Source: a virus
Taxonomy: Duplodnaviria > Caudoviricetes
Virus record (IMG/VR): IMGVR_UViG_3300025789_000018
Length of the DNA stretch: 64,000 nucleotides
Reading direction: 5' to 3' (one strand)
In this document: positions 1,699-53,177 of the stretch, in pieces
How the letters are laid out: each line of letters begins with the position of its first letter
Position numbering within the stretch: the stretch's first letter is position 1
Translations under genes and position numbers: made by a program
Notes under the pieces: model-generated
The model's input: the letters and a program-made list of their open reading frames with translations, nothing else
Databases searched by the model: none
What the model was told of the DNA's origin: nothing

Positions 1699-2469
1699 AT
1701 GACTATTTATACAGGATACGTATATCTTTGGTACGACACCAGAGCAAAATTCTTTTATCTTGGTGGCCACAAAGGTAAAGTAGAAGATTCTTATATCTGC
1801 TCTAACAAAATGATGCTGAGAGCATACAAGAAACGTCCAGAAACATTCAAATTTCGTGTGCTTGAATATGTTTACGGCGACAACAAAGCTTTGCGTGAAG
1901 CAGAACAACGTTGGCTAAACATGATCAAAGACGAAGAACTTTATTGGACACCAAACATTTACAACAAAACTGTTAGATATTACAACCAGAAGAAACATTC
2001 TGCTGGAGGTAATGGCACTGCCAATAAAGGCAAAAGTAGACCAAGTTGGAGCAAAGGATATACAAAAGATGAAATAAATCTAAGAAGAGACGGTCTGTTG
2101 TCTTTCTTTCCTTTAGATATTCCTAAGAAACTTCCAAAAAGGCGTCAACTAGACAAAAGTAAAACAAAAATAAAAGAAGCAAAACCAAAGTTTTGTAAAG
2201 TGTATTCGCATATATGCGAAAAGTGTGCTAAAAACTTCTATCATAAAAAAGATGATATTAGATTTTGCTCTCTATCATGCCGCGCAAGTAATGCAGCATC
2301 TTTAGTAAAGGTAAATGGCATGAAGAAAGAACAAACTAGAAAAAGTTTTTCTAATCTAACCACTGGAAGAAAAATGTCCACGAGAGAAGACGGCACAAGA
2401 TATTGGACATATCCAGATAATGAGGGTGTTTATTTCACAGAGTACACCCACAAACTCCGAACTACTTAG
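1699..2469 (+). CDS. Seg-like GIY-YIG homing endonuclease
   Basis: GYVY..FYLGGHKG..YICS N-terminal GIY-YIG-type motifs; C-terminal CxxC..CSxxC zinc motif; antisense to the flanking genes. Confidence 0.85.
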   Translation: MTIYTGYVYLWYDTRAKFFYLGGHKGKVEDSYICSNKMMLRAYKKRPETFKFRVLEYVYGDNKALREAEQRWLNMIKDEELYWTPNIYNKTVRYYNQKKHSAGGNGTANKGKSRPSWSKGYTKDEINLRRDGLLSFFPLDIPKKLPKRRQLDKSKTKIKEAKPKFCKVYSHICEKCAKNFYHKKDDIRFCSLSCRASNAASLVKVNGMKKEQTRKSFSNLTTGRKMSTREDGTRYWTYPDNEGVYFTEYTHKLRTT

Positions 2470-2470
2470 A

Positions 2471-2756
2471 TCAGGCAGACATTCTCACGGCTGCAAAATC
2501 GTTGTCGTTATGTGCAACTAGGTTGACATTTACAGTTTTAGCCACTCGGCCAGCGAATCAGTCTAGACTTTCCTATCCAATGCAAATCGATCCCAGGTCA
2601 TCCCCATCAACTACACTGTGCTATATAAGGATAGCGTTAGTCCTAAGTCTTTAGACAATACTATCTAGCAGATACTAAATGCACAGTATAGATGGTGGAG
2701 ATGGGGAGAATCGAACTCCCGTCTTTACATCTTTCAGTCCGCTTTCAAACAACTGA
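2471..2756 (-). ncRNA. ssrA: Circularly permuted (two-piece) tmRNA
   Basis: Acceptor piece ends GAC-GGGAG-TTCGATT-CTCCC-CATCTCC-ACCA (3' end 2693); coding piece starts GGGGATG at 2605, giving G3-U70; 87-nt intervening stem 2606-2692; TAGTT|GCA resume site and tag AHNDNDFAAVRMSA* at 2471-2515; late promoter 2762-2769. Confidence 0.92.
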
Positions 2757-2796
2757 TAACTTATTTATACGCGAAACGCATATAAATGTCAAGAGA

Positions 2797-3000
2797 TTAT
2801 TTTACCTTTTTGTTGACTTTGGCCTTTGGTGCAGGCGTTAGAGCAGCTTCTAGACGCTCTTCCAGATCCTTGATGTCTGCTTCAGCAGTGGCAAGCTTTT
2901 CCTTCAGTCGGGCACTTTCGATAGTATCTGCGCTTACAACCGTACCAGCCACAAATGCTACGAACAGCAATGCAATGAAAATTCCGTATACAATAAACAT
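2797..3000 (-). CDS. Small membrane protein with coiled-coil tail
   Basis: N-terminal hydrophobic helix; late promoter at 3038-3045. Confidence 0.6.
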   Translation of the reverse strand: MFIVYGIFIALLFVAFVAGTVVSADTIESARLKEKLATAEADIKDLEERLEAALTPAPKAKVNKKVK

Positions 3001-5602: not shown

Positions 5603-6124
5603 ATGAATATATATCTTTATATCAAACAATGTACACATTGTCAACTAAAATATTTTGGTAAAACATCACAATCAAATCCTTATGAATATAAAGGATCAGG
5701 AAAGAGATGGCGTAATCACCTAAAGAAACACAAAGCATCTGTTATAACACTTGAAGTTTTTTCATTTGATAATGAACAAGATGCTAAAGAGTTTGCTCTA
5801 GCGTTTTCTAGAGAACACTCAATAGTAGAATCTAAAGAGTGGGCAAATCTTATAGAAGAAGACGCACTCTGTGGTGGATCAAGACCATATAATAAAGAAG
5901 CAAACAAGAAAAACTCTAAACTGGGTGGATTTGCTAAAGCGGCAAAAGGATATCCAGTTTGGAACAAAGGTCTAAAGACTGGTCCAGATTCAGAAGAAAC
6001 TAAAAGAAAAAAGAGCGCCAGTAGAACTGGCAACCGACGCTCTTATAGAGAAGATGGAACTTGGTTTTGGATCAAACCAACTCTGCCATCTCCACAGCAA
6101 GATTCAACGCTTGGACTTTCTTAG
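5603..6124 (+). CDS. GIY-YIG family homing endonuclease
   Basis: IYLYIKQCTHCQLKYFGKT..Y.GSGKRW..H; paralogous to 12334 and 62769. Confidence 0.8.
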   Translation: MNIYLYIKQCTHCQLKYFGKTSQSNPYEYKGSGKRWRNHLKKHKASVITLEVFSFDNEQDAKEFALAFSREHSIVESKEWANLIEEDALCGGSRPYNKEANKKNSKLGGFAKAAKGYPVWNKGLKTGPDSEETKRKKSASRTGNRRSYREDGTWFWIKPTLPSPQQDSTLGLS

Positions 6125-7133: not shown

Positions 7134-7200
7134 TATAAATAAAATGTCTGTCACGGTATCCCCATACCCACAGACTCTAACGCTAAACAGGAGCATCAGC
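7134..7200 (+). promoter_or_regulatory. Nuclease-cassette leader copy 3
   Basis: TATAAATA, GTCTGT/ACAGAC and GGTAT/ATACC stems, same 3' block. Confidence 0.85.
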
Positions 7201-7707
7201 ATGTCTATTTATCACACACATCACATTGTCCCTCGCCATATGGGAGGCACAGACGATCCTTCAAATCTTGTCAGATTGACGATTGAAGAACACGCGGAAG
7301 CGCATAAAAAGTTGTATGAGGAATACGGCAAAGAAGAGGATAGGATTGCTTGGTTAGCCTTGTCTGGCCAGATTACTCTCTCTGAGGCATCTAAAATGGC
7401 TCATATTCTAGGTTCTTACAAAGGTGGATATGCGAAGAAACCCAACAAAGTACCAGCGCACAATAAAATAGATTGTTATTGCGTTGGTTGTAGAAAAAGA
7501 ATGAAACCTTCAGAGAAGGGTCACAAACTTTGTTTTAAAAAAGCATATGGTTTAGAGAGAACGCCAAACTCTTCTTTTTTCACATCAGAAAACGGTAAAG
7601 ATATATCTAAAAGAAACAATGCCACCTCTACTTGTCCACACTGCAATAAACAAGGTCAATATAGAGCAATGAAAAGATGGCATTTTGATAAATGTAAAGC
7701 GAAATGA
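7201..7707 (+). CDS. HNH homing endonuclease (Mob-like) with C-terminal CPHC zinc finger
   Basis: HHIVPRHMGGTDDPSNLVRLTIEEHAEAH; start set at ATG 7201 after the AGGAG SD. Confidence 0.85.
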   Translation: MSIYHTHHIVPRHMGGTDDPSNLVRLTIEEHAEAHKKLYEEYGKEEDRIAWLALSGQITLSEASKMAHILGSYKGGYAKKPNKVPAHNKIDCYCVGCRKRMKPSEKGHKLCFKKAYGLERTPNSSFFTSENGKDISKRNNATSTCPHCNKQGQYRAMKRWHFDKCKAK

Positions 7708-12267: not shown

Positions 12268-12333
12268 TATAAATAGATGTGGTTCACGATGTTGACGCAT
12301 CTAACCACACTATCGCTAAACAGGAGCAACAGC
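12268..12333 (+). promoter_or_regulatory. Nuclease-cassette leader copy 4 (most diverged)
   Basis: TATAAATA, GTGGTT/AACCAC and GATG/CATC stems, CGCTAAACAGGAGCAACAGC-ATG. Confidence 0.8.
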
Positions 12334-13002
12334 ATGTCTATTTATCTCTATGTCAAACAATGTCCCCACTGTGGGCTAAAGTATTTTGGTAAAACAGAAC
12401 AAGATCCATATACTTACAACGGATCAGGAAAGATGTGGATTCCACACATCAAGAAACACAAAGTCACACCAAAAACAATAGAACTATATGAGTTTTCTGA
12501 TAAAGAGGAAGCAAAAAAGTTTGCTATAAACTTTTCTAAAGAAAACAGAATAGTAGAATCTAAAGAGTGGTTCAATCTTGTTATAGAACAGTGTGACGGT
12601 GGAGACACCTCGGCTTCTCCAGCATTTCAACGATGGATTGATCAGATAGACATGGCTGGTGAAAAAAATCCTATGTATGGTAGATCAGCAATAACTGAAC
12701 AAAATCTTCGTTGGTATACTAACGGTGAGAACAATCTATATCTTCCTGTCGGCACAGAGATGTTGGGTTATCGCCGAGGAAGAACTATAAAACATAGAAA
12801 ACCACATACACAAGAACATAAAGACAAGATATCTAAAGCAAATACGGGAAAGAAAAGTGTAAATCAAAAAACGTGCATATCACCTGATGGAAATATATAC
12901 GAATCTATCACACAAGCCGCAAACGCACATTCAATGACTGTATCGGCGTTCAGACATAAAATCGAACATAAAGAAAAACATTTGGGTTGGATTATTGTTT
13001 GA
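12334..13002 (+). CDS. GIY-YIG homing endonuclease with NUMOD3-like motif
   Basis: IYLYVKQCPHCGLKYFGKT..YNGSG; HTQEHKDKISKANTGK; start at ATG 12334. Confidence 0.82.
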   Translation: MSIYLYVKQCPHCGLKYFGKTEQDPYTYNGSGKMWIPHIKKHKVTPKTIELYEFSDKEEAKKFAINFSKENRIVESKEWFNLVIEQCDGGDTSASPAFQRWIDQIDMAGEKNPMYGRSAITEQNLRWYTNGENNLYLPVGTEMLGYRRGRTIKHRKPHTQEHKDKISKANTGKKSVNQKTCISPDGNIYESITQAANAHSMTVSAFRHKIEHKEKHLGWIIV

Positions 13003-13610: not shown

Positions 13611-14336
13611 TCAAGCAGCAATGCGCAAAACATTGCCGCCAGGACCATTGATCGGGCGAGAAAGATTGACACGATCACCAGCAGACTGACCGCTGCGATA
13701 TGCTGCACCATCACGAATGGTGGTAGTACCATATTTCTTCTTAAGACGCAAGCCAAGTTCACGATATGCCTGATTGACAACCTGATTCTTCAGAACAATC
13801 AAAGCATTGCTGCCGCCTCGTGCAGCTTTTTCTTCGCCGTTCATCTGAGCCTTCATTTCGTTCAGACGACGACCAATACGCATTGCCATACCAGTGGTAA
13901 ACGAACTGGTAGCACCTTTCTTGCTATATGCTCCCTTATATTCAGGAGTCTTCTTGAACTTTGCCAGTTCAGTTGCCATAGCCGACAGGATAATATCATA
14001 AAGATACTTCACCATCAGAAGATCGCTTTCTTGACCAAAGAAGCAATACTTCAGAGTAGCACCACGATTGGTCCACACCTTACAATCGGTAAAGCCAGCG
14101 ATATCCGAGAGAGCGTAATAGACGCCGTTGCGGACCTTGCTGCCAATATCAATCTTCAAAGTGTCACAAACTTCATCACGAAGTTCGACCTCGTTCATGG
14201 ACAGATTATATTGCGAGAGCAACTTACCCACCATGTTGATTGCGGTAAGTGCTTCTTCTTCCGAGCAGCCATTCTTGACGGTCTTAGCCGAGAGAGCGCG
14301 AATACGAGCCTTGATCTTGCTTTGGATATCAGTCAT
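13611..14336 (-). CDS. DUF2786-domain protein
   Basis: KIRALSAKTVKNGCSEEEALTA..KLLSQYNLS. Confidence 0.75.
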   Translation of the reverse strand: MTDIQSKIKARIRALSAKTVKNGCSEEEALTAINMVGKLLSQYNLSMNEVELRDEVCDTLKIDIGSKVRNGVYYALSDIAGFTDCKVWTNRGATLKYCFFGQESDLLMVKYLYDIILSAMATELAKFKKTPEYKGAYSKKGATSSFTTGMAMRIGRRLNEMKAQMNGEEKAARGGSNALIVLKNQVVNQAYRELGLRLKKKYGTTTIRDGAAYRSGQSAGDRVNLSRPINGPGGNVLRIAA

Positions 14337-14403
14337 AACGAATCATTCCTTCTCACTAGCTATATTTTCATCATAAACGAATCGGGATAAATGTCAAGCG
14401 ATC

Positions 14404-14616
14404 TTATCGCTCCAGAATGACATAATCACCAAAGTGACGATCAAAAACTTCCAGAAGGTTTTCAAAAACTTCCATCATTTCCGAAACAATAGCTTTACCA
14501 TCAAGCCCGAGTTGCTTTGCATACTGGCGGGCATAACCCATGAGGACAAATGCGTTACCTTCAGGACCACTCAGGTCGATAACGATTTCAGACTTGGGTT
14601 GCTTCTCACGAATCAT
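14404..14616 (-). CDS. Conserved phage hypothetical protein
   Basis: IDLSGPEGNAFVLMG motif. Confidence 0.65.
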   Translation of the reverse strand: MIREKQPKSEIVIDLSGPEGNAFVLMGYARQYAKQLGLDGKAIVSEMMEVFENLLEVFDRHFGDYVILER

Positions 14617-14750
14617 AACGTATCCTTTCGATTAATATTCAAGTTGTGCGCCAGGAGGTGGAAGTTCTGGATAATACCAATCGGGAACCAAAGCCCGCAC
14701 CCAGACGCAATCAGATAGACGCTTTATCCAAACAAAATGATAACCTTCCA

Positions 14751-14996
14751 TCATGAAGAAACTTTTTCGTGAACCATCGCGATGTGCTTACACTTACCAC
14801 GAAAGTTGAAACCAATGCAATCACATACCCAACCACGTTCGACCATGGTTGTGTTATATTGCTTGCCTTTAGAGTTTACGTATGGCCAGGTGAAGCCAAC
14901 CAGATGGTGTTTCTCACTGAAGTTAATACCATCAAGAGCAAGAGGTGTCCGATAGGGGCTAACACCAGGAACAAACATGATTAACGTTCCGCACAA
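14751..14996 (-). CDS. SWIM-type zinc-finger protein
   Basis: CDCIGFNFRGKCKH (CxC..CxH). Confidence 0.65.
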   Translation of the reverse strand: MCGTLIMFVPGVSPYRTPLALDGINFSEKHHLVGFTWPYVNSKGKQYNTTMVERGWVCDCIGFNFRGKCKHIAMVHEKVSS

Positions 14997-15169
14997 GCAA
15001 CAAAATCGTCCAAAAGATATTGGAGCCGATCAAGCTTGATCTGCAACCCGGCAATCCTTTCGCCAGTCAACTCTTCACGCTCTGCTGCTCGGAGAGTAGA
15101 TTCCATTCCAGCGACCAACTTGCGCATCGCACCAATCAGTATTTGTTCATCATCATAAAACATAATCAA
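14981..15169 (-). CDS. Hypothetical protein
   Basis: ORF in the minus-strand run. Confidence 0.5.
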   Translation of the reverse strand: MIMFYDDEQILIGAMRKLVAGMESTLRAAEREELTGERIAGLQIKLDRLQYLLDDFVACAER

Positions 15170-15175
15170 ATCTCC

Positions 15176-15532
15176 TTACGCAGCCAACTTGTAGGGTTGA
15201 TCCCACTTACCAGCATGAACATACGAGTACCAACCCACATCAAAGTAGTCGGTCATAATATCGCTGTTATCATGATTGCCGTCGTTCATAGCAACACGAA
15301 GTTCCTTCAAGAACTGAAGTTCCTTGCCCTGATAGTTGCTTTCCAGATGATAAAAGTGCATCTGACTATAACCGTTTTCGTTCTGAGCGAACTTCAGAGG
15401 ACCTTCTTTCAAGGTCAGAATCAGAGTGCTGTGATGGCGAACCGACAGACTACCCTTCATATTGTACTTCTTGAGGATCGCTTTGACCTTGGGAGCGATA
15501 GCAGCTTTCTTTTCCTGAGACATGTAAGCCAT
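15176..15532 (-). CDS. Conserved phage hypothetical early protein
   Basis: Behind an early promoter; DNSDIMTDYFDVGWY motif. Confidence 0.7.
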   Translation of the reverse strand: MAYMSQEKKAAIAPKVKAILKKYNMKGSLSVRHHSTLILTLKEGPLKFAQNENGYSQMHFYHLESNYQGKELQFLKELRVAMNDGNHDNSDIMTDYFDVGWYSYVHAGKWDQPYKLAA

Positions 15533-15597
15533 AACGAATCAACCCTTCTCTCTGTCTATATTCTTACCATACACGATTCGGGATAAATGTCAAGCGG

Positions 15598-15996
15598 TCA
15601 TCGCCTCATTTTAGAAATATCTTCCGCGTCTTCCTGACTGAAGACAGGTACCAGATTGCTCTTATGCATCGTGGCGATGCCGAGCAGCTTGTCGCCCGTA
15701 TATGTGTTAGGCGCTTTGGCAAACGTCACACCGATGCCATCACCAGTCTCATACTTGGGCGCATTGCGAACGTATGTGGAAGCTTCCATACCAGTCTTAA
15801 CGGTCTTTGTTTTGTATGCGGCATTGCCTTGTCGATATGCAACATACTCTTGGAACGTCTTGGTTTTTGATCCAAGCCGCTTCATCTGCTTGTTATAGTC
15901 TACCCAATCTTGAGCATACTTCGCCGTGTTTAGTTGCGGCTTGCGTTTCTTAGTTGAGTTTGTGGTATAAGCAGGACCTAGGAGATGCATTGTCAT
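15598..15996 (-). CDS. Conserved T4-like hypothetical protein
   Basis: GIATMHKSNLVP motif. Confidence 0.7.
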   Translation of the reverse strand: MTMHLLGPAYTTNSTKKRKPQLNTAKYAQDWVDYNKQMKRLGSKTKTFQEYVAYRQGNAAYKTKTVKTGMEASTYVRNAPKYETGDGIGVTFAKAPNTYTGDKLLGIATMHKSNLVPVFSQEDAEDISKMRR

Positions 15997-16228
15997 ATTA
16001 AGCAGCCATCAGAATGAAACAAGTTGCCAGAATGTAAAGATAGGATTTAGTAGTCATGGCGATCCCTGATAGACAACGTGATGTATGAAGCAATATATGC
16101 CATCATCGGGACAGCGATGTCGGCTCGGTCAAGTGTTCCCTTAACATAGTCAGGAATATAAAAACCAATTCCACAGAACAGTGCAATACCTAGTGCGAAC
16201 AGGATACGAGACAACATTTTAACTCTCC

Positions 16229-16435
16229 TTAAATTCCGAATTCAGCGGCATAATCTGCATCTAGCCGAATATTCCCATAACCACGTTGAATCAACCTATT
16301 TCGGACATTTTTTGCAGCGCATCGAAACTCGTCAACAGTGTAATGAATCCCCCACTTTGATCCGCGTCCAGTGATACGAGTGTCATTCACATAAACTGCG
16401 TTCTTGTCGGTTACGGTTACTTTTAGGATTTTCAT
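16229..16435 (-). CDS. Hypothetical protein
   Basis: ORF preceded by a GAGG SD. Confidence 0.55.
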   Translation of the reverse strand: MKILKVTVTDKNAVYVNDTRITGRGSKWGIHYTVDEFRCAAKNVRNRLIQRGYGNIRLDADYAAEFGI

Positions 16436-16669
16436 TTAACTTCTCCTCAGCGATAAATGTTGCGCTTGAGTTCAACTTCAAACTCTTCTCGGCCGACGGT
16501 GCACCGATTGCCAGTCACTTCTTCATAGATCATGACTTCTTCCATCAGATTTCCAAGGTCAACACCTTTAGCAATGAAAGTCCCATTGTGATTACGAGCA
16601 ACAAACATTTTCATGATTCGAATCTCTCTCACTGACTACTTTTTCATCATAACAGAATCAGGAATAATG

Positions 16670-17092
16670 TCAAGCAGCGATTTTTTCGTAAACACCTTCG
16701 CCGTTGCTGAAACTGCCGATCTTGGCATAGCAGTTGAAAGCCTTGTTCAACACCTTTTCAAAGTTGGGTGCAATCCGATTGACCCAAGCATGGGCAAGAT
16801 TCTGCAAAGAAATCTCATCGCTGTAGTAGCAATCGTACTCTTTGGCGACCAGAGAAATGCTGGCCAGCCCACAGTATTCCGAAACTACAACTTGAGCGAA
16901 CCTGTTTTCCAGAATGGCACGAAGTTCACGCCCAATCCACTTGTCTTCGTTGTCAAACGATTTGTAGGCATCCTTGACGATGCTCTGCACATCATCTACA
17001 AAGTCATCCCATTCCCAGGAGTCCTGAATGTACGAAACATCAACATAGACCACAGCGCCGGCGCCACTGGCATAATCAACTGAACGTCCCAT
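16670..17092 (-). CDS. Hypothetical early protein
   Basis: Single gene bounded by two early promoter elements. Confidence 0.65.
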   Translation of the reverse strand: MGRSVDYASGAGAVVYVDVSYIQDSWEWDDFVDDVQSIVKDAYKSFDNEDKWIGRELRAILENRFAQVVVSEYCGLASISLVAKEYDCYYSDEISLQNLAHAWVNRIAPNFEKVLNKAFNCYAKIGSFSNGEGVYEKIAA

Positions 17093-17149
17093 AGCGAATC
17101 AACCTTTCTCAATGACTACATTCTTACCATAGACGATTCTGGATAAATG

Positions 17150-17350
17150 TCAAGAGTGCATTTGGATATCTTTGAGGTGTGGCGCGATCTGCTTGGCAGA
17201 ATATTGCACCTCGTTGATTTCAAAGAACCAGCGACCAGACTCTTCTCGTTTCAGTTTCAGTGCTTCACCTTCACGAAATGGCGAGATACCCCAAGTCCAT
17301 GGGCGACCTGTTTGAAGTTCGAATGCACCACCTGAAAGCTTCGTGATCAT
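17150..17350 (-). CDS. Hypothetical protein
   Basis: ORF preceded by an AAGGAG SD. Confidence 0.55.
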   Translation of the reverse strand: MITKLSGGAFELQTGRPWTWGISPFREGEALKLKREESGRWFFEINEVQYSAKQIAPHLKDIQMHS

Positions 17351-17361
17351 AACAAATCTCC

Positions 17362-17646
17362 TTAACCGACAACTTCATCAATCACACTGACCAAATCTTC
17401 GACATAGATGCCTTCGAGTTTCTTGACATACTTTACATCAATGCCACGAATCTTGAAGAAGTCAATGTCGTAAAGGTCTTTGCCTTCGTTGTACTTGACG
17501 TAAACATAGCCCTTCCACTTGGCCATCCCGCTGGATTTGAACTTCAGCCCATCGCCCATGTTCACGAGGTCTTTAGCACCCCAAGCCCACAGTGCGCGAG
17601 GATCAATGGCTTTGATCTGGTCACGAATGATAACTGCGATGCTCAT
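17362..17646 (-). CDS. Hypothetical early protein
   Basis: Behind an early promoter (TTGACA 17702-17707). Confidence 0.65.
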   Translation of the reverse strand: MSIAVIIRDQIKAIDPRALWAWGAKDLVNMGDGLKFKSSGMAKWKGYVYVKYNEGKDLYDIDFFKIRGIDVKYVKKLEGIYVEDLVSVIDEVVG

Positions 17647-17711
17647 TGCGAATCACCTTTTCTCATTGACTACTTTCTCAATGTACACGATTCGCCAAAA
17701 ATGTCAACCAC

Positions 17712-18905: not shown

Positions 18906-19371
18906 TTTGTTTACTCCGTTTTTTCACGAACTTGGAGAAGTCCTTTTCGTCTTCGTAGGGCGTGAGGTCTAGATTTGGTGGTGATAACTTGAGGTTTTCA
19001 TGATCAAGTTTCTTGACGTATTTATCAACAAACTTATCGTATGCTCTCCAGTTTAGCCCATCCCCAACAACTGCATCATGCTCTACTGCTAACGCAATGT
19101 GATGGGCTTCTTGGTATCGAAGCCCAAACACATCTATCAAGGCCTTCTCCACTCTTTCGTGAACAAGGAGGTATTTTGTGATATCTGTACCATTAAAGTC
19201 AACGTTCATGTGTCTATCAATGTAGATGTCTTTACTGTCTTTGGAATAACCAGCAACATAAGGAACATCATACTTGTTAATGATCTTCACGGTCCTACCA
19301 ATCTCTTTTTGAAAGGCAGGATCGTGAAGCATTGTATGGACACGAAAACTATGAACTTTAGGTAGGGCCAT
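18898..19371 (-). CDS. Hypothetical protein with HExxE motif
   Basis: LLVHERVE..EAHHIA. Confidence 0.6.
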   Translation of the reverse strand: MALPKVHSFRVHTMLHDPAFQKEIGRTVKIINKYDVPYVAGYSKDSKDIYIDRHMNVDFNGTDITKYLLVHERVEKALIDVFGLRYQEAHHIALAVEHDAVVGDGLNWRAYDKFVDKYVKKLDHENLKLSPPNLDLTPYEDEKDFSKFVKKRSKQND

Positions 19372-20044
19372 TAATCAATCCAGATAAGTCTTGAAGGGTT
19401 TTGATGGAGTCATCTCTGTGGCAGACTTCGACATACTTATCAATGTCGGTAGACCACTGTTTTCCATCCCACCATTCAAAACCTTTGAACTGTGACTTGT
19501 AGATACCAATATTTCCATAGCCAGAACCAATGTAAAGATGATAATATCCCATCTTCTTGGCTAACTCTACTTCATATGCCACTAAGTGGCGTGAGATAGA
19601 AGCTTTTGGTTCTGAATAGTCCCATGCGGTAAACTGTGTTTCAAGCCCACCGTCATAAGTTGTCATCTTAGAAAATGCAACCAAGTCTCCTGCATTGTTA
19701 TGCACAAGAATCCATGTTGCACGATCTAGATCGATTTCTATTGTATAAATGTCATCGAGGTTACGTCTTGCTGTAAACATACCGAATACGGTACCAACGT
19801 CTGACATATCCTCAATCGATTCAACGTGGGTTACTTTATAACCCTTTAGTGGTTTAGTTTTCTTATCGAATAGATTGCAGTCGATGCGGACAGAACGTGA
19901 GTTATACCACTTTCTATCGTTAATCAACCAACCTTGTTCGAGGGCGTCCACTTCACGCGAGTTTTCCAGGTCTAGTTCTAAATCGTAAACTTGTAAATCG
20001 TATTGCGAAACATTACCAAAGATAGGGTGTATCTTGGTCTTCAT
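19358..20044 (-). CDS. ATE/Bpt-like aminoacyl-tRNA-protein transferase
   Basis: LEQGW..RSVRI in the N-part; LVAF...WDY...SI...E.E.AK..GY..LYIG.GY....YK..F...EWWDG..W matches the ATE_C pattern. Confidence 0.65.
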   Translation of the reverse strand: MKTKIHPIFGNVSQYDLQVYDLELDLENSREVDALEQGWLINDRKWYNSRSVRIDCNLFDKKTKPLKGYKVTHVESIEDMSDVGTVFGMFTARRNLDDIYTIEIDLDRATWILVHNNAGDLVAFSKMTTYDGGLETQFTAWDYSEPKASISRHLVAYEVELAKKMGYYHLYIGSGYGNIGIYKSQFKGFEWWDGKQWSTDIDKYVEVCHRDDSIKTLQDLSGLINGPT

Positions 20045-20053
20045 TTCTGGGTA

Positions 20054-20503
20054 TTAGCTCCTTACGAGTTTGTATGCATTACCTCCATCATCGTAAAAGC
20101 CAAGGACCAACTCAATAATAGTAAAACCGTATGCATTATATAAAGACAGAGCCACATCGTTCTCTACTCTACAGTGTAAAGTGAGAGGGGACCATGGTAT
20201 AGTCTTATTATCGATATAGTGTTGTAAAAGCAGTTTAGAGTATCCTTGCCCGCGGTATTGTGGGTCAATCTCTAAAGTTTCTAGATATTCAGATTGATCT
20301 TGATCGTCATCATAGACATAACTTATATAGAAGCCTGCTATATCATCATTGATCTGAAGAACATTGACATTACAACCAAATGATTGGTAGTCTTCAAGTT
20401 CATCAATCGTAATCGTGTCTGTTTCAAATGAGGCTTTCTCTATCTCTATCATTCTAGGATAGTCAACCTCGGTTGCTTCACGTATACTTATATAAGTTGT
20501 CAT
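20054..20503 (-). CDS. GNAT (RimI-like) acetyltransferase
   Basis: LEIDPQYRGQGYSKLLL...LHCRVENDVALSLY...GF. Confidence 0.85.
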   Translation of the reverse strand: MTTYISIREATEVDYPRMIEIEKASFETDTITIDELEDYQSFGCNVNVLQINDDIAGFYISYVYDDDQDQSEYLETLEIDPQYRGQGYSKLLLQHYIDNKTIPWSPLTLHCRVENDVALSLYNAYGFTIIELVLGFYDDGGNAYKLVRS

Positions 20504-45392: not shown

Positions 45393-45536
45393 TCAATCGT
45401 TATTTTCCAACCGCTGCTTGATGGCAGCAATCACATCATCAAGGCATTCGTGCGAATCGGTGCCGTCTAACTCAAGCATGGCCTTTGCCCAATCAAGGTC
45501 ATCAAGCGCCATTTCCAAAAGTTCACGATCAGTCAT
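45393..45536 (-). CDS. Small hypothetical protein (47 aa, not in ORF track)
   Basis: Hand translation MTDRELLEMALDDL...; coupled to the ligase stop. Confidence 0.5.
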   Translation of the reverse strand: MTDRELLEMALDDLDWAKAMLELDGTDSHECLDDVIAAIKQRLENND

Positions 45537-46782
45537 TGTACTTCACTCCCGGAAACCAAGCATCACGGATCGCTTCATACTTTGCCGTGCGACCAAGGTT
45601 ATTACGGATCGTTTTGCGAACGTCTTCGCCAATCTTCAGACCACTGATAATGTCGTTATCAAAGTTCTTGAAAATAATAGGACGAATGAAAGCATCAACA
45701 CCAACACTGTGCTTCGGATCGATTGCAAACGTTTTACGATCAATACCACGCTCACGGAGATATTCCAGCTTCATACCAATCAGCCTTACGCGACGGGCAA
45801 TATCAAAATGAATATTGCTCTCAAACTGAGTCAGCCGATCACGATCTTCGGCAGGCAGATGAGCCTTGATGTCATCCAGCTTTTCTTCCAGAATCAGTTC
45901 AACGATGTTGCGATCTTGCAGGATAGCTTCCTTCGCCTTGTGAATCTGGAGATACCAATGGCACTTCAACTTCAACATATGACCATCATCAAAACGAACC
46001 ACGAACCCTTCAAGGTCTTCCAGATCGTGGACGTATTCAAGGAAAGCCTTCATATCATTCTGTTCACCATAGTTAGTGAACTCAAATGCACGGACGACAG
46101 GGATATCCCAATCTTCAACATGCAATCGGTTGATACGACCATCACCGAACAGTTTGATATATTCGCCAGTATGCATATCGCGAAGAGCGGTGAGGATCAG
46201 TTGATCTTCCTTGTAGTCCAGAACAATGCGCTGCTTACGCGAACACCATTCAAAGATAGGAGTTACACCGTTGGCAATGCAGGAAGTAGCAAACTTCTCA
46301 TACTGAGGTTTGTTCTTGACGAACTCCTCAACAGGCTTTGCCACGTCGGTAGCACCCATCTTCGTGCCCCAGATCATTTGACCATTCACAATGAACGGAG
46401 CGATCATGGAACCATCCAGCTTCTCAAGGATAGCATGAGGGCGCGACAGATCAATGACATGATCCTGCGTCTCCTCACGCTCGTTCACATTGAAGAACTT
46501 ATGGAACGGGCGACGAATGATATAACCAGTTTCAGTATCAAAGATGATACCACGACATTCACGACGGATTGCTGCGGTGGGATCGTACTCACCAAAAGCA
46601 ATACGATTGAGAGGCTCCTGCCACTTCATATCAACTGGCACATCAGGAAACGTATCGGACATCATCACGTTGTAGTTGATGACCGTGTAGCCTTCCTTCT
46701 CAGCCACAACGAACTCGTAACGACCTTCAATAGCAGGCAGCACATCAGCGATGTTGGTGATGTGAGGAAACTCATAGTTCAT
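45529..46782 (-). CDS. rnlA: RNA ligase 1 (T4 RnlA-like)
   Basis: ECRGIIF..FHKFFN, EKLDGS, TPIFEW, EGFVV, KLK. Confidence 0.88.
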   Translation of the reverse strand: MNYEFPHITNIADVLPAIEGRYEFVVAEKEGYTVINYNVMMSDTFPDVPVDMKWQEPLNRIAFGEYDPTAAIRRECRGIIFDTETGYIIRRPFHKFFNVNEREETQDHVIDLSRPHAILEKLDGSMIAPFIVNGQMIWGTKMGATDVAKPVEEFVKNKPQYEKFATSCIANGVTPIFEWCSRKQRIVLDYKEDQLILTALRDMHTGEYIKLFGDGRINRLHVEDWDIPVVRAFEFTNYGEQNDMKAFLEYVHDLEDLEGFVVRFDDGHMLKLKCHWYLQIHKAKEAILQDRNIVELILEEKLDDIKAHLPAEDRDRLTQFESNIHFDIARRVRLIGMKLEYLRERGIDRKTFAIDPKHSVGVDAFIRPIIFKNFDNDIISGLKIGEDVRKTIRNNLGRTAKYEAIRDAWFPGVKYND

Positions 46783-46835
46783 TGTTCAATCTTTCACTCT
46801 GCTACATTCTCACCATACACGATTCGTATTAAATG

Positions 46836-47909
46836 TCAAGAGGCATTATACCGCTGGATATACCATGGGCGTGCTACATTCGCAATAGCAGATCCCAGCT
46901 TCTTGGTATCAATCTGATTCGCAACGATGGTATCAGCTTCTTCCTTGACGACATCATTGTAGACCCAACGGATAAAATCGCCGAGAGACTTCATATCAAA
47001 GGGCAGCAGTTGTTCGCGAACCAGATTGTCTAGACCCTGTTCAAGACGCGATTCAGTGACAACTGATTCGATGAAAGCCTTCATGTTCTCTACTGCTTCA
47101 ACATCAACAGCAGCAAGAGTCTTGACCTTCGAAGAAGAATGCTTTTCGCCCTTGACTTTAAACCAAGTGCCCGAGTCGTTATAACCAGGAGTGACGCAAG
47201 TCCACACAACACCTTCGCCAATGCCGCTAACACCAAAGTGCTTACCGACAGGGCATTCGGCTTCAACAGCTTCCGTGATTTCGATCATCTTGTTCTGAGC
47301 GATTTCAGGAAAGTTGAAGTCAATGTCGATTTCGTAGGTAGGAAACTCATTGATCCAGTAAATATTAGGGACAGCCCGTTGACTCACTTCAATGAAACTT
47401 GGCATGTTTGCCCAGACAGAATCATCATCTGCATACATTTCTTTATATGCAAACACAACAAACATCTTGTCCAGACCAGTAAGAGCAACACCCTTTTGGA
47501 TATTACCACCGCACCATTCACCAAACAAAACTAGTTTTGTTGGCATTTTATTGGTCTTGCGCGGAGCAAACTGTTCCATAAGACCGTTGTGGAAACATGC
47601 TTCAAAATACTGAATAAAGATTGATTCGTGACTCTTAGCCCAAAGCATGAAGCCAGCATTGTCAGAAGTCAGCGACAGTTCACGTTCACGCGACTGATAG
47701 CTAATAGTGTCGGTGGCAACGTCATACACGATACCCGCGTTGGTACCATGCAGCTTGACAGTACCACGAAACTTCAGCGTAGGAAGCGGGCGAGAATGAT
47801 CATACACAGCATTGCCATCAGCATCCTTGCCAGCATACCGCGTATGGTTCTTGACATGATGAATCGTGGAACGGAACTGTTCAATAGAGGGAAACCTAAT
47901 CAAGTGCAA
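46836..47909 (-). CDS. RNA ligase 2 (Rnl2 family)
   Basis: KLHGTN, QSR, FGEW, GEGVV, KVK; probable TTG start after AAGGAG. Confidence 0.85.
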   Translation of the reverse strand: MHLIRFPSIEQFRSTIHHVKNHTRYAGKDADGNAVYDHSRPLPTLKFRGTVKLHGTNAGIVYDVATDTISYQSRERELSLTSDNAGFMLWAKSHESIFIQYFEACFHNGLMEQFAPRKTNKMPTKLVLFGEWCGGNIQKGVALTGLDKMFVVFAYKEMYADDDSVWANMPSFIEVSQRAVPNIYWINEFPTYEIDIDFNFPEIAQNKMIEITEAVEAECPVGKHFGVSGIGEGVVWTCVTPGYNDSGTWFKVKGEKHSSSKVKTLAAVDVEAVENMKAFIESVVTESRLEQGLDNLVREQLLPFDMKSLGDFIRWVYNDVVKEEADTIVANQIDTKKLGSAIANVARPWYIQRYNAS

Positions 47910-48499
47910 TCTCCTTTTCTTTGCATGGCATATCTTCCGCACCAAAATCTACGATATAAGGAAAGGGAAGATAATCTTCCAGAACATCAACCACTGTTCC
48001 TACTTGATTTTCGTTAACAAGTCCAATATCTCGCGTGGCATACACCCTATCACCAATCTTAAACATAATCTTCTTCCTCATCTTCAATCAAGAAACCTTC
48101 ACCACCACAAACGACGCAAGTTTCACCATATTCTACACCACTGCCACCACAGACCATACAATCAATAGGATTGCAGCCACGACGACCATACGCATCTTCA
48201 TACACATCAGGATCAATCATAAAGACTCACTTATAAAGTTCAAGAGGATGAACGACCGTCAGTTCTTCTTTGACATATAGCCAGAAGGGTTCAGGAAAAG
48301 GCGGAGCATATTCACGCCCATAGAACACTTTGATCAACTTGCCATCGACATCGGCGACAACACCAACGCGATCCTTGTTGGGCCAAATGCACGAGCGGAC
48401 CGAATCACCAACTTTAATCATAAAAAATCTTCCTTTCGCTGTCTGATAACTCATCATATCAAAAGGGAGATAAATGTCAACCAGTTTTTTCAGAAAAAA

Positions 48500-48811
48500 T
48501 CAGATATCGTCCAGATCGATAGCCTTGATGCCTGGATACTCTACATGATTGATTTGTTGGAACTTTTGTTCATCTGGCCATGCAGATAGGTAATCGTTAT
48601 CCTCGTTGAAGACCTTAAGATATTCTTCAGGAGAAACTTCGCGTCCACTAGAGATAACCTCACCGATATGATATTGTGACATTTCACGCCAGTCATCATC
48701 ATAGATTTCTGTCTTTACCGCTACTTCATTCTTAGCATCTTCAAGAGTATGTGCTTCTACCGCATAACGCATACGATGTGAAGAAACAGTTTCAATAATA
48801 AAGATTGCCAT
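48500..48811 (-). CDS. Conserved phage hypothetical protein
   Basis: ORF in the minus-strand run. Confidence 0.6.
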   Translation of the reverse strand: MAIFIIETVSSHRMRYAVEAHTLEDAKNEVAVKTEIYDDDWREMSQYHIGEVISSGREVSPEEYLKVFNEDNDYLSAWPDEQKFQQINHVEYPGIKAIDLDDI

Positions 48812-49046
48812 GATTAATCCTTACTCCAATCTTTACTCACACTCGCACGAGTAACAAGAAGCGATACTAGAATGGAGATGCCCCAAGCTTGGATCCAACC
48901 AATAGGTCGCAAAATAGTCATAGCAGGAACAAGATCAGCATTCCATAGCCACATAACAGGCCATGACATCAACAGACCATAAGCACAACCGAGAACGATA
49001 GTGCCAAAAACAGTAAACAAACCAATAATAAACTTATCCATAATCA

Positions 49047-49589
49047 TTACCTTCCATAAAAAACAGTTTTAGCGTTTGTTGTATTTGTAAACAGATACCA
49101 AGCACAGTTGTCTTTCCCGCTTGTCTTGCTTCCCTCAATCCACTTTACACGACCCACAGATACAACCATTTCGCAGCGTTTCATCAGCGCGGATGATTGC
49201 TTGGTGTGCATCCAGTCTGCATCAAACAGCAGCCAAGTGGGAAGTTGATTGCTGAAGTGTTCGATCATGGGATGAAGAATCTTGCGATCCCAAGGTGGAT
49301 TGGTGATGATGTAATCTATATTCCATCCATAATATACTGGATTGAACTGAATATCAAGAGCATTTGACTGTAGAATCCACTGTTCTTGTGGTTCAATGTC
49401 CCATGCTTCAATACAAGTATGATTGTGATAATCAAGATGATCAATCAATCTGCCATCGCCAGCGCATGGTTCATAGAAGTTAGAATACTTCTTCAGATGT
49501 GGCAACAGAGGCAGAACGGCTTCCATCGGAGTAGGATAGAAGTCACGTTCTACTCTGTCAAAGTCACTTCGTTTACCCATTATAACCAC
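49047..49589 (-). CDS. Small DNA amino-methyltransferase
   Basis: DFYPTP, EPCAGDG, DI, ITNPPW. Confidence 0.85.
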   Translation of the reverse strand: MVIMGKRSDFDRVERDFYPTPMEAVLPLLPHLKKYSNFYEPCAGDGRLIDHLDYHNHTCIEAWDIEPQEQWILQSNALDIQFNPVYYGWNIDYIITNPPWDRKILHPMIEHFSNQLPTWLLFDADWMHTKQSSALMKRCEMVVSVGRVKWIEGSKTSGKDNCAWYLFTNTTNAKTVFYGR

Positions 49590-49990
49590 TCATAACCTTC
49601 GTCCTCTAATGTATAACAAACATGCTTGATATCAAACGCTGCAATAGCGCGCATACAGCCTTCACACGGCTTAGCCAATCCCTGAGTGATCATAGGTTTC
49701 TTGCTATGTGTCCACTTACACCGATAGATGTAGAGTTTGGATTTAGCCACGGTATCAGCATCATGCCTACGCAGTGCGTTAGCGATTGCATCTATTTCTG
49801 CATGGAGATATATAGCTTCTTCATGTTTTGCATATCTGCCTTGAAGTGGATGCGTTTTGTTCTTGTTAGTGCCAATCGCGATGATTTCGTTTTTGTAAAC
49901 GAGAGCAGCGGCTATCTTGGCCCTAGCAAACGGTTCCGAGGCTTCAGCAACCTTGCTGAGGACCTTCATAATCTTCATCGAAATCTTCAT
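49580..49990 (-). CDS. Cytidine/dCMP deaminase-fold zinc protein
   Basis: HAEIDAI...PCEGC. Confidence 0.85.
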   Translation of the reverse strand: MKISMKIMKVLSKVAEASEPFARAKIAAALVYKNEIIAIGTNKNKTHPLQGRYAKHEEAIYLHAEIDAIANALRRHDADTVAKSKLYIYRCKWTHSKKPMITQGLAKPCEGCMRAIAAFDIKHVCYTLEDEGYEWL

Positions 49991-50107
49991 CGAGAATCAA
50001 CACCCAACCGCGAATAGGATCATAATATGTAATATTGTCAAGTAGATCATATACTTCTGAGAAGTGTGTTAGTGCTTCAAAGGATGAGAATGATTTTTCC
50101 GTTTCCA

Positions 50108-50509
50108 TCAAGCAACACTCCAATCATAGTCATCTTGTGTCATGACAGTTTCATTACCATCATACTCATCAATACGATACAGAGTACCAGCAGGAAGTTC
50201 TTTGATCAGCAGCTTGGCGTAAATATCATTAGCAGCATCACCAAGTTCTTCTACAACCTGAACCAAAGCAGGATCGGTACGACTAATACTACGGTCGCTG
50301 AAAGTTAGTTCATCCGAACGGCGGTAGTCACGTTCTTTATGGCATTCCTCATAGATACGTTCCCATTCTTCCAAAGGAACAGTAGTATACGAATAACCCC
50401 AGCTACGATGATCGTACAGAGTGATTCCCTTGATTTCAGCATAACGCATAACAGCCTCATGCGATAGACCGAAACCACCATAGGAAGAGTTGTAAACAAT
50501 CTTAGTCAT
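50108..50509 (-). CDS. Conserved phage hypothetical protein
   Basis: KIVYNSSYGGFGLS..RTDPALVQVVEELG..IDEYDG.E. Confidence 0.7.
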   Translation of the reverse strand: MTKIVYNSSYGGFGLSHEAVMRYAEIKGITLYDHRSWGYSYTTVPLEEWERIYEECHKERDYRRSDELTFSDRSISRTDPALVQVVEELGDAANDIYAKLLIKELPAGTLYRIDEYDGNETVMTQDDYDWSVA

Positions 50510-50813
50510 TTCACTTAGCCTTTCGGATGAGACGCGCAACGTCTTTGTCAAGAAAATCACCAGTAGTGTACCAAACACGCGATGCAACGCAGTCAGTCAC
50601 GGCCAGAGCGCATATGTCAGCGTTCGGGCATGTATCGCAGGGAATATCGCGAACGTTCTCTGGAGTGTTTAGGATCATCTTGGAAGCAGTGCAGACACCG
50701 TTCATGAAAGATGTGTCTGTTGAAACTGAAAAATAATCTGCGTTCATGACAATCTCCGTTTTCTATTATGTATACCTAGCACGATTCGCGATTAATGTCA
50801 ACCGTATTTTCGA

Positions 50814-51014
50814 TCATCGAAAAGATTTTCGATCTGACTCACCATAAAAGCCAGCATCATATTCGTTAATCTGCTCTGGGGTCATATCAGACTTTTCCAC
50901 AAGAGGTGATGCATACGTAGCTTTTTCATAAAAGTGTGGCTTGTAGGGGCGACCATAATAGGCATCAGCACTACCACGATCATAAGGACCACCGTGACGA
51001 TGATTAAAAGACAT
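50814..51014 (-). CDS. Conserved phage hypothetical protein
   Basis: HGGPYDRGSADAYYGR motif. Confidence 0.65.
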   Translation of the reverse strand: MSFNHRHGGPYDRGSADAYYGRPYKPHFYEKATYASPLVEKSDMTPEQINEYDAGFYGESDRKSFR

Positions 51015-51379
51015 TATTCGCCCTCCACAAGCTTGAAGCCAAACGTATCAACCTCAAAAACTTCACCATCAATGATCATACGGTCACCGACCATAGACGA
51101 GCGATGACCCCACTTTTCGCCGGCGAAACAGTCAAGAGGCTTTACAACAATCACATGAGGATTGAAATCGGGATTCTCATAAAGTTCGCCCTTATAATCG
51201 ATCATTCGTTCCATCGACCAGGAACCACCGATGTTCTGAGTGTGACGATAGGCATATTCCAGAGCGTCTTGTACTCCCATATTATCAAACATGTAGCTTG
51301 ACAGATCAATCGTAGCCATATGCTCAAACCAACGATTGCCGAGACCGTCGCGATCAAAATGAAGAACTTGAACTTCCAT
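51014..51379 (-). CDS. Hypothetical early protein
   Basis: Behind an early promoter; RSSMVGD motif. Confidence 0.65.
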   Translation of the reverse strand: MEVQVLHFDRDGLGNRWFEHMATIDLSSYMFDNMGVQDALEYAYRHTQNIGGSWSMERMIDYKGELYENPDFNPHVIVVKPLDCFAGEKWGHRSSMVGDRMIIDGEVFEVDTFGFKLVEGE

Positions 51380-51690
51380 AACGAATCACCTTTTCTCTTT
51401 GCTACATTCTCACCATACACGATTCGTGAATAATGTCAAACGAAATCTTCGAGAGCCTTGACCTGAATCGGAGTGGCGATGCGAAGAAACTTCCGAATGG
51501 TTTCAGCGGCTAGCGTGTATTCTTGCATTTCTAGAAGTTCCATTTCTAGTAGAAGTTCATTAACGATTTCAGTAACAGTCATTTCAGTTTCCTGTATTAC
51601 ACATGGGTTTGCCGTCACGATCCAGACGAGGAAGCCCATAAAAGATTGTGAATAAAGCCAGAGGAATGCCGGCTGCATATAGAAAAGTTT

Positions 51691-52062
51691 TCATTTACTC
51701 ACCTGTGTAAAAGAAATAGAATCGTATTCGTCATCATTATACCTTTTCGCCCAATCGGACTTCACCTTTTTCCGAAACACAATCTGGTCTTTGTTTTCTT
51801 GATAAAACTTTCGGGCTGCGGCGTCAACACCATAACTGTCTACCGATCGAACTTCAAAGAAGTCCGACACCAGTTGACGGACGTATGTCACCCGAAATGT
51901 CTTCAGTTTCTTCTGCTTCTTGATATGTGCCTTCAGATTATCTTTGGCATCACGACCATTGATAATAGAACAAAAAGTCTTTTCATCAGTGTCAGCTAGT
52001 GGTCCCCATGATTCTGGGGAACGATTTCGTACTTCAACAGTCATATTAATGCAAAATCCCAT
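51691..52062 (-). CDS. Hypothetical protein
   Basis: ORF in the minus-strand run. Confidence 0.5.
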   Translation of the reverse strand: MGFCINMTVEVRNRSPESWGPLADTDEKTFCSIINGRDAKDNLKAHIKKQKKLKTFRVTYVRQLVSDFFEVRSVDSYGVDAAARKFYQENKDQIVFRKKVKSDWAKRYNDDEYDSISFTQVSK

Positions 52063-52251
52063 ACAAGAGAACTAGGTAGATAATAGCATTGACGGTAACC
52101 AAAGCATTATCTTTCAAATAAATGCCAACAAAAGTCCAGATAAAGGCACCGACCATTCCAAACATCATATCAGCATCGCGATATCCCAATGCTCGACATA
52201 AAACAGAAATTAACACGAACGCGGTACCCAACCACTTATAGAAATTTATCA

Positions 52252-52536: not shown

Positions 52537-52599
52537 GACGAATCACTTTCTCTCTCTGTCTACTTTCTGACAATAGACGATTCGCGATAAAATGTCAAG

Positions 52600-53010: not shown

Positions 53011-53177
53011 ATTAAATCTCCACGTTTTTGTAAACTATATGATTTGGTCCATGCTCACCATAGACACATCTAGCGATTCGTTTTGCGTCTTTGAATGACT
53101 TTGCGTTCAGCCCGATATAGTCGATATCGGTTTCACGACCCGATTCTTCTGTTATAAAAATCAGAAAATAGCGTTTC

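Follow-up and report, generated by a model that had tools for sequence, protein, structure and literature searches.

A divergent two-piece tmRNA gene with a Ser-Ala tag end and a predicted early/late promoter in a T4-type phage

Does a T4-type phage carry its own trans-translation RNA and, if so, when would that RNA be made and what would become of the proteins it tagged? The question is raised by a locus on the minus strand of IMG/VR virus record IMGVR_UViG_3300025789_000018 (Duplodnaviria; Caudoviricetes), a stretch of 64,000 nucleotides (nt) that was analysed whole and is called the window here. An earlier reading made without database searches (the sequence-only reading) had placed at 2471-2769 a complete phage-encoded two-piece transfer-messenger RNA (tmRNA) under a late promoter, with a tag ending in -SA instead of -AA. 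The locus was confirmed as a circularly permuted (two-piece) tmRNA gene on the minus strand. ARAGORN, which that reading had proposed as a check, called one permuted tmRNA in the window (2380-2785, minus strand) with the tag AHNDNDFAAVRMSA followed by a stop, and thus with the -SA end. The Rfam family RF04321 (tmRNA_permuted) matched 2757..2471 on the same strand over its full model (positions 1-213; 72.4 bits, E 5.8e-12; gathering threshold 47 bits). The two programs agreed on a complete gene, and its context was T4-like.

The gene ran from the T-arm, acceptor 3' strand and CCA through a spacer to the acceptor 5' strand and the tag (Table 1), the parts being read off by hand and their pairings checked by script. 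All seven positions of the acceptor stem (GGGGAUG/CAUCUCC) paired, the third as G-U (G3-U70), and the alanine identity features were present, which bears out the perfect alanine acceptor stem claimed earlier. By their sequences, the T-loop (consensus GUUCGAUUC) and the D-loop analogue (consensus GG..UCGA, here ACCUGGGAUCGA) fit the SmpB-binding features. The three P2 helices linking the pieces all paired (AUGUAAA/UUUGCAU, 7 base pairs (bp); GGACU/AGUCU, 5 bp; AUCAG/CUGAU, 5 bp), and a G/A population polymorphism at 2740 changed a G-U to an A-U pair in the GGACU/AGUCU helix with pairing kept. The Rfam alignment misplaced the middle helix and marked P2 there as non-canonical. The minimum free energy fold of the precursor as a single strand recovered the T-arm, the acceptor stem and the spacer hairpin and missed P2, with a z-score of only -2.28. 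The spacer hairpin started 1 nt past the CCA and stopped 5 nt short of G1; the spacer had exactly the 87 nt of the sequence-only reading and is presumably excised. All the elements named in that reading stood at the positions it gave.

Just past the tag stop, alignment to the beta-type model together with inspection brought out two interleaved helices, S1 and S2, of an H-type pseudoknot. S2 was fully paired in five lineages (the window; L016, of the sister lineage; the Methylophilales phage Melnitz; L015; L003b), with at least two pair types at 6 of 8 positions. Changes in S1 were compatible with pairing in Melnitz and in L015 and L003b, and the Pelagibacter phage HTVC008M had the same structure after its stop. 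These pairs were tabulated by script, since MAFFT mis-registered the short pseudoknot sequences. The predicted pseudoknot is well supported by this covariation, and because it lies at 2459-2424 the gene extends to at least 2424. The span of 2471-2769 given earlier therefore holds as the distance from stop codon to late motif, and the whole unit is larger, with a -35 hexamer at 2792-2787 and the pseudoknot reaching 2424.

At least eight independent viral or metagenome contigs carried this gene with an identical tag, so that the gene is not a sequencing or chance artefact. A search with a T-arm/acceptor 28-mer yielded seven further viral contigs with this gene and tag, a tag-centred metagenome scan yielded one more (a 141-kb contig), and the IMG/VR record G001 was 99% identical across the tmRNA. 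A 12-kb megablast against the phage collection gave no match, and a distant blastn of the tmRNA against phages matched only the T-arm of Achromobacter phages.

Compared with the window, the sister lineage (L016 and L025) had diverged in both flanks and in the spacer, and was identical in the -35 hexamer, the TATAAATAAGTT segment and the coding piece from G1 to the second tag codon. The acceptor piece differed from that of L016 at a single position, in an unpaired stretch. The spacers (87 nt in the window, 81 nt in L016/L025) could not be aligned; that of L016/L025 folded at -25.7 kcal/mol with its closing helix at the same position as in the window. In tag codons 1-9, changes against L016 had occurred at 5 of 5.0 synonymous sites and at 0 of 22 non-synonymous sites (P ~6.5e-5 under random mutation), and codons 10-14 carried four conservative replacements (V/M, R/K, M/I, S/A). 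At the level of sequence comparison, purifying selection was thus shown on the structural RNA, the spacer fold, the post-stop pseudoknot and the tag peptide. Because this mosaic of conservation follows function, one recent transfer cannot explain the gene.

The called tag frame had the context UAGUU before its resume codon GCA, which fits U-A-R-N-N plus GCN, and an in-frame stop was present. A second in-frame candidate, GUC (2527-2525), stood with the context UAAAU at the position of the resume codon of the relatives (GUAAAY, then GCA AAC GAY). Read back in frame, the relatives gave ...K(T/N)(V/I)N-AND..., and the window and L016 gave ...KTVN-VNLV-AHNDND. The His described earlier as an insertion is indeed extra relative to the canonical ANDN start; judged from this read-back, it belongs to an in-frame expansion of 15 nt at the tag start. 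The 12 inserted nt (2527-2516) and the codons GCA CAU were unchanged between the window and L016, synonymous sites downstream being saturated, and GCA is favoured as the resume codon because this invariance indicates constraint as RNA.

The ancestral GUC, from which the same RNA would add the valine-first tag (A)VNLVAHNDNDFAAVRMSA, has the alignment on its side: the resume codon follows GUAAAY or similar in Melnitz, L012, L015, L003b and the Achromobacter phage JWDelta, the window has GUAAAU before GUC AAC at the aligned place and in frame with the called tag, and the upstream UAAAU is the Rfam consensus. Resumption there nevertheless appears unlikely. Both ARAGORN and Infernal chose GCA, nearly all tmRNAs have a GCN resume codon, and UAGUU before GCA resembles the context in Escherichia coli, UAGUC before GCA. 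From GUC to GUU, 12 nt had no synonymous change against L016, whereas about 5 of the next 7 codons had changed; the stretch fits untranslated, RNA-constrained sequence, because synonymous changes were absent there and common downstream. The C-terminus of the tag is identical whichever codon serves.

The end of the tag was -MSA in the window and in eight related contigs, the typical hydrophobic Ala-Ala end being absent, as the sequence-only reading had it. The tag of the sister lineage L016/L025 ended in -IAA, and those of Melnitz, HTVC008M, L012, L015, L003b and JWDelta ended in -LAA or -VAA, so that, by comparison of these tags, the -SA end is the derived state of one lineage. Other ends without -AA were those of the cyanophages S-SSM7 (-VTA) and S-CRM01 (-AAL) and of Patescibacteria (-PA, -LA, -FA). 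In E. coli, when the penultimate or last Ala is substituted, ClpXP has a higher KM and a nearly unchanged Vmax (PMC7652416), and for that reason the Ser-Ala end would most likely be a weakened degron, not an abolished one, and an adaptor could make good the loss. The N-terminal half of the tag being frozen, an adaptor or some other reader may still be in play.

The late promoter claimed earlier stood in part. An exact TATAAATA was present at 2769-2762, which corresponds to a T4-type late promoter, a type defined by TATAAATA some 6 nt before the start site and independent of a -35 element; its use by gp55 is predicted. The window held 17 copies of the motif where 2.8 are expected (6-fold), and 0 of 100 shuffles reached 17. 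Alone among these 17 sites, the tmRNA copy also had a perfect TTGACA exactly 17 nt upstream, of the early class, and this hexamer lies in intergenic DNA, since the open reading frame (ORF) upstream stops at 2797-2799. The stereotyped early-promoter class of this phage had about 25 copies, all on the minus strand (cTTGACATTTaTc.CGAATCgt.TATGAT..GTAG.CAG.GA; examples at 3625, 8014, 8933, 9482, 10914, 13614-17707, 45396-52598, 61374 and 61614). The tmRNA promoter had the cTCTTGACATTTAT part of this class, cTTGACATTTAT being common to the approximately 25 early promoters, and the L016 promoter additionally retained the CGAATCGT box. Within the early class itself, the CGAATC spacer box and the conserved GTAG.CAG.GA start region hint at either an additional recognition element or a 5' leader shared by these transcripts.

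Despite diverged flanks, the -35 hexamer was invariant in L016, Melnitz and L012 (TTGACC in the last), and TATAAATA was conserved in all three; the design was the same in Melnitz (cTCTTGACATT-17-TATAAATA) and L012 (TTGACC-17-TATAAATA). The Melnitz ssrA promoter was classed as early by its authors (PMC9004378). Early and late readings of the window promoter both place the start at about 2757, the first position of the RNA model match, and transcription is predicted to start there. Because an early-class -35 element stands at 17 nt and is conserved in L016, Melnitz and L012, in addition to the late motif, the promoter is most likely a sigma70 early-class/T4-late hybrid that would work in both phases of infection. 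Transcripts begun late at the 3045-3038 motif, ahead of the upstream ORF, possibly run on into the tmRNA as well.

The sequence-only reading had gone further and proposed expression late only, with a tag re-engineered by the extra His and -MSA, so that ribosomes are rescued and tagged proteins escape SspB/ClpXP. The TATAAATA motif is real and enriched, the penultimate Ala ranks among the top two ClpX determinants of E. coli (PMC7652416), all four replacements against the sister lineage fall in the last five tag codons, and -AA is also absent from the tags of two other T4-like phages. This proposal is nonetheless quite unlikely, as it leaves aside the perfect and conserved early-class -35 hexamer 17 nt upstream. 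Late promoters of the gp55-type in T4 need no -35 element. The sister lineage retains -IAA and most relatives -LAA or -VAA, and the replacements are conservative, with the final Ala and the carboxylate retained. Such substitutions in E. coli alter KM, not Vmax (PMC7652416), and the strict conservation of the N-terminal tag half suggests continued reading by something.

A decoy role, by which the RNA would mainly titrate host SmpB, AlaRS (alanyl-tRNA synthetase) or EF-Tu instead of tagging productively, is very improbable. In its favour, the tRNA-like-domain-only tmRNA of mycobacteriophage DS6A, as cited in PMC11915505, inhibits endogenous tmRNA on expression in E. coli. Also in its favour, SmpB of the phage itself was not found, either as PF01668 in fragments G001, G404 and G405 or by tblastn of two Burkholderiales SmpB proteins against the window. 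The tag frame is, however, under clear protein-level purifying selection, and the resume context, the stop codon and the downstream pseudoknot, all needless for a decoy, are conserved.

The locus is probably a functional phage-borne permuted ssrA of the Melnitz gene family. A single precursor would be transcribed from about 2757 by the hybrid promoter, probably throughout infection. Host RNase P would cut at G1 (2605) and host 3' processing would trim to the encoded CCA (2693), whereby the 87-nt hairpin would be lost, and the 65-nt acceptor piece and the coding piece would be held together by the three P2 helices. Charging by host AlaRS through G3-U70 and A73 would be followed by delivery to stalled ribosomes by host SmpB and EF-Tu, and translation would resume at GCA (2515), adding (A)AHNDNDFAAVRMSA. 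The likely benefit would be that ribosomes are kept free while host mRNA is destroyed and host ssrA transcription is off.

Several points weigh against this explanation. Transcription and its timing, cleavage into two pieces, charging with alanine, tagging and what becomes of tagged proteins are all inferred from the sequence. In the PK1 region upstream of the tag, only a 5-bp hairpin (UGGCC/GGCUA) and a second stem of at most 3 bp were present. The -10 element TATAAA lacks the highly conserved T at its last position and was skipped by a sigma70 consensus scan, and the resume codon is ambiguous between GCA and GUC. No intrinsic terminator was found downstream of the tmRNA, and for the coding piece only a minimum extent is given. 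The gene fell under threshold on all three lineage models, and neither the 28-mer scan nor the limited sample of 401 Pseudomonadota genomes yielded a close bacterial counterpart.

Among the Rfam families of bacterial two-piece tmRNA (RF01849, RF01850, RF01851 and RF04321), the three subtype models gave 39.0 bits for G001, of the window type, and 38.8 bits for L016 with the alpha model (RF01849; threshold 50), 49.4 to 51.4 bits with the beta model (RF01850; threshold 84), which was the best of the three, and 27.7 bits with the cyano model (RF01851; threshold 70), as a partial match. With the alpha model, Melnitz (106.7 bits) and HTVC008M (83.8 bits) were both above 50. The Alphaproteobacterial type suggested in the sequence-only reading was hence not recovered by score. 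Even so, homology to the Melnitz ssrA, itself of the alpha type, is evident from the promoter, the P2 region and the pseudoknot.

Whole-tmRNA BLAST against the 401 Pseudomonadota genomes matched only a generic T-arm or ordinary tRNAs. The 28-mer was present in genome contigs of Clostridia, Patescibacteria and two Burkholderiales as well, and is thus not lineage-diagnostic. Permuted tmRNA genes of a Burkholderiales metagenome-assembled genome (L032/L049) and of Noviherbaspirillum aerium (L043/L050) shared the exact 28-mer of the phage and scored 128.9 and 96.6 bits; the tags that ARAGORN gave for them were unusual (VNDDVYYAAAAA, and a 31-residue tag ending in -VANA).

Table 1. Coordinates in the window of the tmRNA gene, its promoter and the neighbouring reading frames.
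Feature	Position	Strand	Detail or basis
-35 hexamer TTGACA, within motif cTCTTGACATTT of the phage early-promoter class	2787..2792	-	intergenic
TATAAATA, T4-type late motif and candidate -10 element (TATAAA, 17-nt spacing)	2762..2769	-	
Acceptor piece, 65 nt, ending CAUCUCC-A-CCA	2693..2757	-	Rfam alignment and scripted pairing check
P2 3' strands, in acceptor piece	AUCAG 2757-2753; GGACU 2740-2736; AUGUAAA 2730-2724	-	
T-arm	2720-2704	-	GGGAG-UUCGAUU-CUCCC, 5 bp, loop UUCGAUU
Acceptor 3' strand CAUCUCC	2703-2697	-	
A73 and encoded CCA	2696-2693	-	
Spacer, exactly 87 nt, long hairpin	2606..2692	-	fold -25.1 kcal/mol
Coding piece, minimum extent	2424..2605	-	Rfam-model alignments and script
Acceptor 5' strand GGGGAUG	2605-2599	-	
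D-loop analogue ACCUGGGAUCGA	2598-2587	-	
P2 5' strands	2586-2580; 2569-2565; 2561-2557	-	coding piece
PK1-region hairpin	2552-2539	-	coding piece
Alternative in-frame resume codon GUC (tag then VNLVAHNDNDFAAVRMSA)	2525..2527	-	alignment and in-frame read-back
Tag frame GCA...UGA, AHNDNDFAAVRMSA and stop	2471..2515	-	ARAGORN; resume GCA 2515-2513, stop 2473-2471
H-type pseudoknot just past tag stop	2424..2459	-	S1 CGGAGU/ACUCUG, S2 GGGUGU/ACACCC, loops 4/0/8 nt
Upstream 67-aa membrane/coiled-coil ORF	2797..3000	-	own late motif 3045-3038; weak Rz-like spanin match (phrog_739, E 0.0022)
Convergent 256-aa ORF	1699..2469	+	own TATAAATA 1632-1639 and leader
Plus-strand cassette ORF	5603-6124	+	weak homing-endonuclease match
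Plus-strand cassette ORF	7144-7707	+	HNH homing endonuclease, E 3.7e-19
Plus-strand cassette ORF	12277-13002	+	GIY-YIG/NUMOD3-like by eye

The window is DNA of a T4-type phage, with a gp61-type primase about 49% identical to Kyanoviridae cyanophage primases, and it also encodes NrdA, NrdB, an endolysin and several HNH/homing-endonuclease genes. The ORF convergent on the tmRNA gene had its stop 1 nt from the tag stop in both lineages, its last codons in the window being antisense to the pseudoknot. It is probably a free-standing homing endonuclease, with an N-terminus that is GIY-YIG-like by eye (GYVYLWYD...FFYLGG). The ORF at the same place in the sister lineage (L025:5643-6356, minus strand) had an N-terminus that is HNH-like by eye (HHIIPK...N...EH..H), and the two had in common a central block of 65 amino acids with 81.5% identity. 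Pfam did not confirm GIY-YIG or HNH in the ORFs convergent on the tmRNA (HNH E 0.37, NUMOD3 E 0.12). The pair gives the impression of one homing endonuclease that sits on the tmRNA gene and has exchanged its catalytic module.

Copies of TATAAATA at 1632, 5534, 7134 and 12268 (plus strand), and a weaker copy at 22243, were each followed by a conserved leader of about 50 nt (aGATGTG...CTCTAACGCTAAACAGGAG) and preceded plus-strand ORFs amid surrounding minus-strand genes. These ORFs, 1699-2469 included, form a family of free-standing homing-endonuclease cassettes with a common late promoter and leader. Just downstream of the tmRNA, weak matches to the alpha_tmRNA model lay at about 1587-1666 (17.4 bits, E 9.6e-5) and 1741-1809 (2.2 bits), located via G001 53052-53131 and 52909-52977; they could represent small structured RNAs or what is left of tRNA-like sequences. 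Farther away, a GNAT acetyltransferase gene was present downstream of nrdB (20054-20503, minus strand; PF00583, E 1.7e-9), and an ATE/Bpt-like reading of the adjacent 228-aa ORF (19358-20044, minus strand) was dropped, there being no Pfam match at E <= 0.01.

Homing endonucleases also adjoined other phage tmRNA genes. In the viral contigs L003 (2780-3230, minus strand), L007, L008, L010 and L011, a copy of the tRNA-like domain (acceptor piece, hairpin spacer and the 5' half GGGGAUGGCCAGGUUUCGACAG) was directly followed by a TATAAATA motif and by a GIY-YIG gene (MHYYIYKITN...KIYIG) with a Shine-Dalgarno sequence before it, and a complete permuted tmRNA (tag ANDELFALAA) lay about 600 bp beyond the tRNA-like copy. 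The tag "ESYALLHL" that ARAGORN gave for the first L003 copy was spurious. The arrangement suggests that a phage tmRNA gene either was invaded by a homing endonuclease or was partly duplicated. Two N4-like phages of Achromobacter, JWDelta and Axy11, had an unannotated permuted tmRNA (KF787094.1 19736-20120, L068; also MK962630/NC_054972) that scored 95.8 bits with RF04321. Its tag was read as ANDDYIRLAA, the ARAGORN call being a miscalled peptide of 27 residues, and the HNH endonuclease gene JJJA_0040 lay directly upstream of it.

That the window gene is a functionless passenger, captured as a host or prophage attachment-site fragment or carried along by the adjacent homing-endonuclease cassette, is hardly credible: tmRNA genes are common integration sites whose fragments occur in phages (PMC9004378), and in four cases (the window, L025, the L003 type and JWDelta) a phage tmRNA gene has a homing-endonuclease gene beside it or within it, but the gene is complete with its own conserved promoter, and conservation that follows function in a mosaic is incompatible with one recent transfer. 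Moreover, T4-like phages are not known to integrate.

The existence of two-piece tmRNA in phages is already documented. In a survey of 18,146 phage genomes, 402 had a tmRNA, of which 53, mostly aquatic, were two-piece; the same paper describes permuted tmRNAs on 17 of 47 contigs resembling Melnitz (PMC9004378). The 2025 tmRNA database holds 79 unique phage sequences (PMC11915505). The window gene is a divergent addition to the Melnitz-type family and does not overturn the current understanding of trans-translation. What may be new is the hybrid promoter, the -SA/-IAA pair beside a frozen N-terminal tag half, and the repeated association with homing endonucleases. Two lineages at saturated synonymous divergence amount to a natural experiment in which tag peptide, spacer fold and post-stop pseudoknot were each selected, and their natural -SA/-IAA allele pair is at hand for a comparison of degradation. 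The conserved early/late hybrid promoter would reconcile the published early class of the Melnitz promoter with the late reading made for the window.

A wider view is conceivable, and we hold it as tentative and rather doubtful: the tag would evolve as two modules, with T4-like phages resetting the fate of tagged proteins throughout infection, and homing endonucleases would spread the tmRNA gene. The N-terminal half, which is read by adaptors such as SspB in model bacteria, would be the frozen module (0 of 22 non-synonymous sites changed), and the C-terminal protease-recognition end would drift or be retuned (-MSA, -IAA, -VTA in S-SSM7, -AAL in S-CRM01). If true, this would mean, with a dual promoter conserved to marine Melnitz, more than a topping up of ribosome rescue. 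By the second strand of this view, the invariant tmRNA gene would serve as a landing site for homing endonucleases and hence be spread between phages.

Among known systems, the closest was the ssrA gene of Melnitz EXVC044M (MZ577097, about 45.97-46.39 kb; Buchholz 2022, PMC9004378), likewise permuted and likewise of a T4-like (Kyanoviridae-type) myophage. The two genes shared the promoter architecture (cTCTTGACATT, 17 nt, TATAAATA), the P2 region (AAUAGGAAAGUUUAGA vs GAUAGGAAAGUCUAGA), the H-type pseudoknot after the stop and a tag of 14 codons. They differed in the Melnitz tag, ANDNYVPVDYALAA, which has the canonical end and is without the 15-nt expansion of the window, in the spacer (about 140 nt vs 87 nt) and in the T-arm sequences. 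Downstream of its tmRNA, Melnitz has a glutamine riboswitch and a gene for a gp33-like coactivator (PMC9004378); an Rfam scan found no glutamine riboswitch after the window tmRNA, where the antisense homing-endonuclease gene stood instead. HTVC008M (NC_020484, about 145.1-145.4 kb), a T4-like myophage, and pelagimyophage contigs also had a permuted tmRNA. The HTVC008M pseudoknot (GCCUGU/ACAGGC) followed the stop as in the window, its tag (ANFNEYALAA) was unlike that of the window, and the TTGACA/TATAAATA pair was not found within 70 nt upstream.

Two-piece tmRNA in Alphaproteobacteria (Caulobacter) goes back to Keiler, Shapiro and Williams 2000, as cited in PMC9004378. With the alphaproteobacterial RNA the window gene had in common the gene order, the G3-U70 stem, the encoded CCA, the inter-piece P2 and an ANDN-like tag core; unlike it, the window gene lies in a lytic-type phage, and its tag has the -SA end and the N-terminal expansion. 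The T4-like cyanophages S-SSM7 (NC_015287) and S-CRM01 (NC_015569) also had permuted two-piece tmRNAs, with tags read as ANNIVAFSRILTREFARTDELVTA (L074, about 21.0-21.2 kb) and ANNVVKFRRTAVTSLVAAL (L073, about 88.4-88.5 kb), respectively; ARAGORN began the S-SSM7 tag too early (AKSSDTA...). In contrast to the window gene, these were cyano-type RNAs with very short spacers, other tags and no hybrid promoter. Their tags combined an N-terminal half of the host (cyanobacterial) type, ANNIV.F.R, with the ends -VTA and -AAL, which parallel the -MSA of the window.

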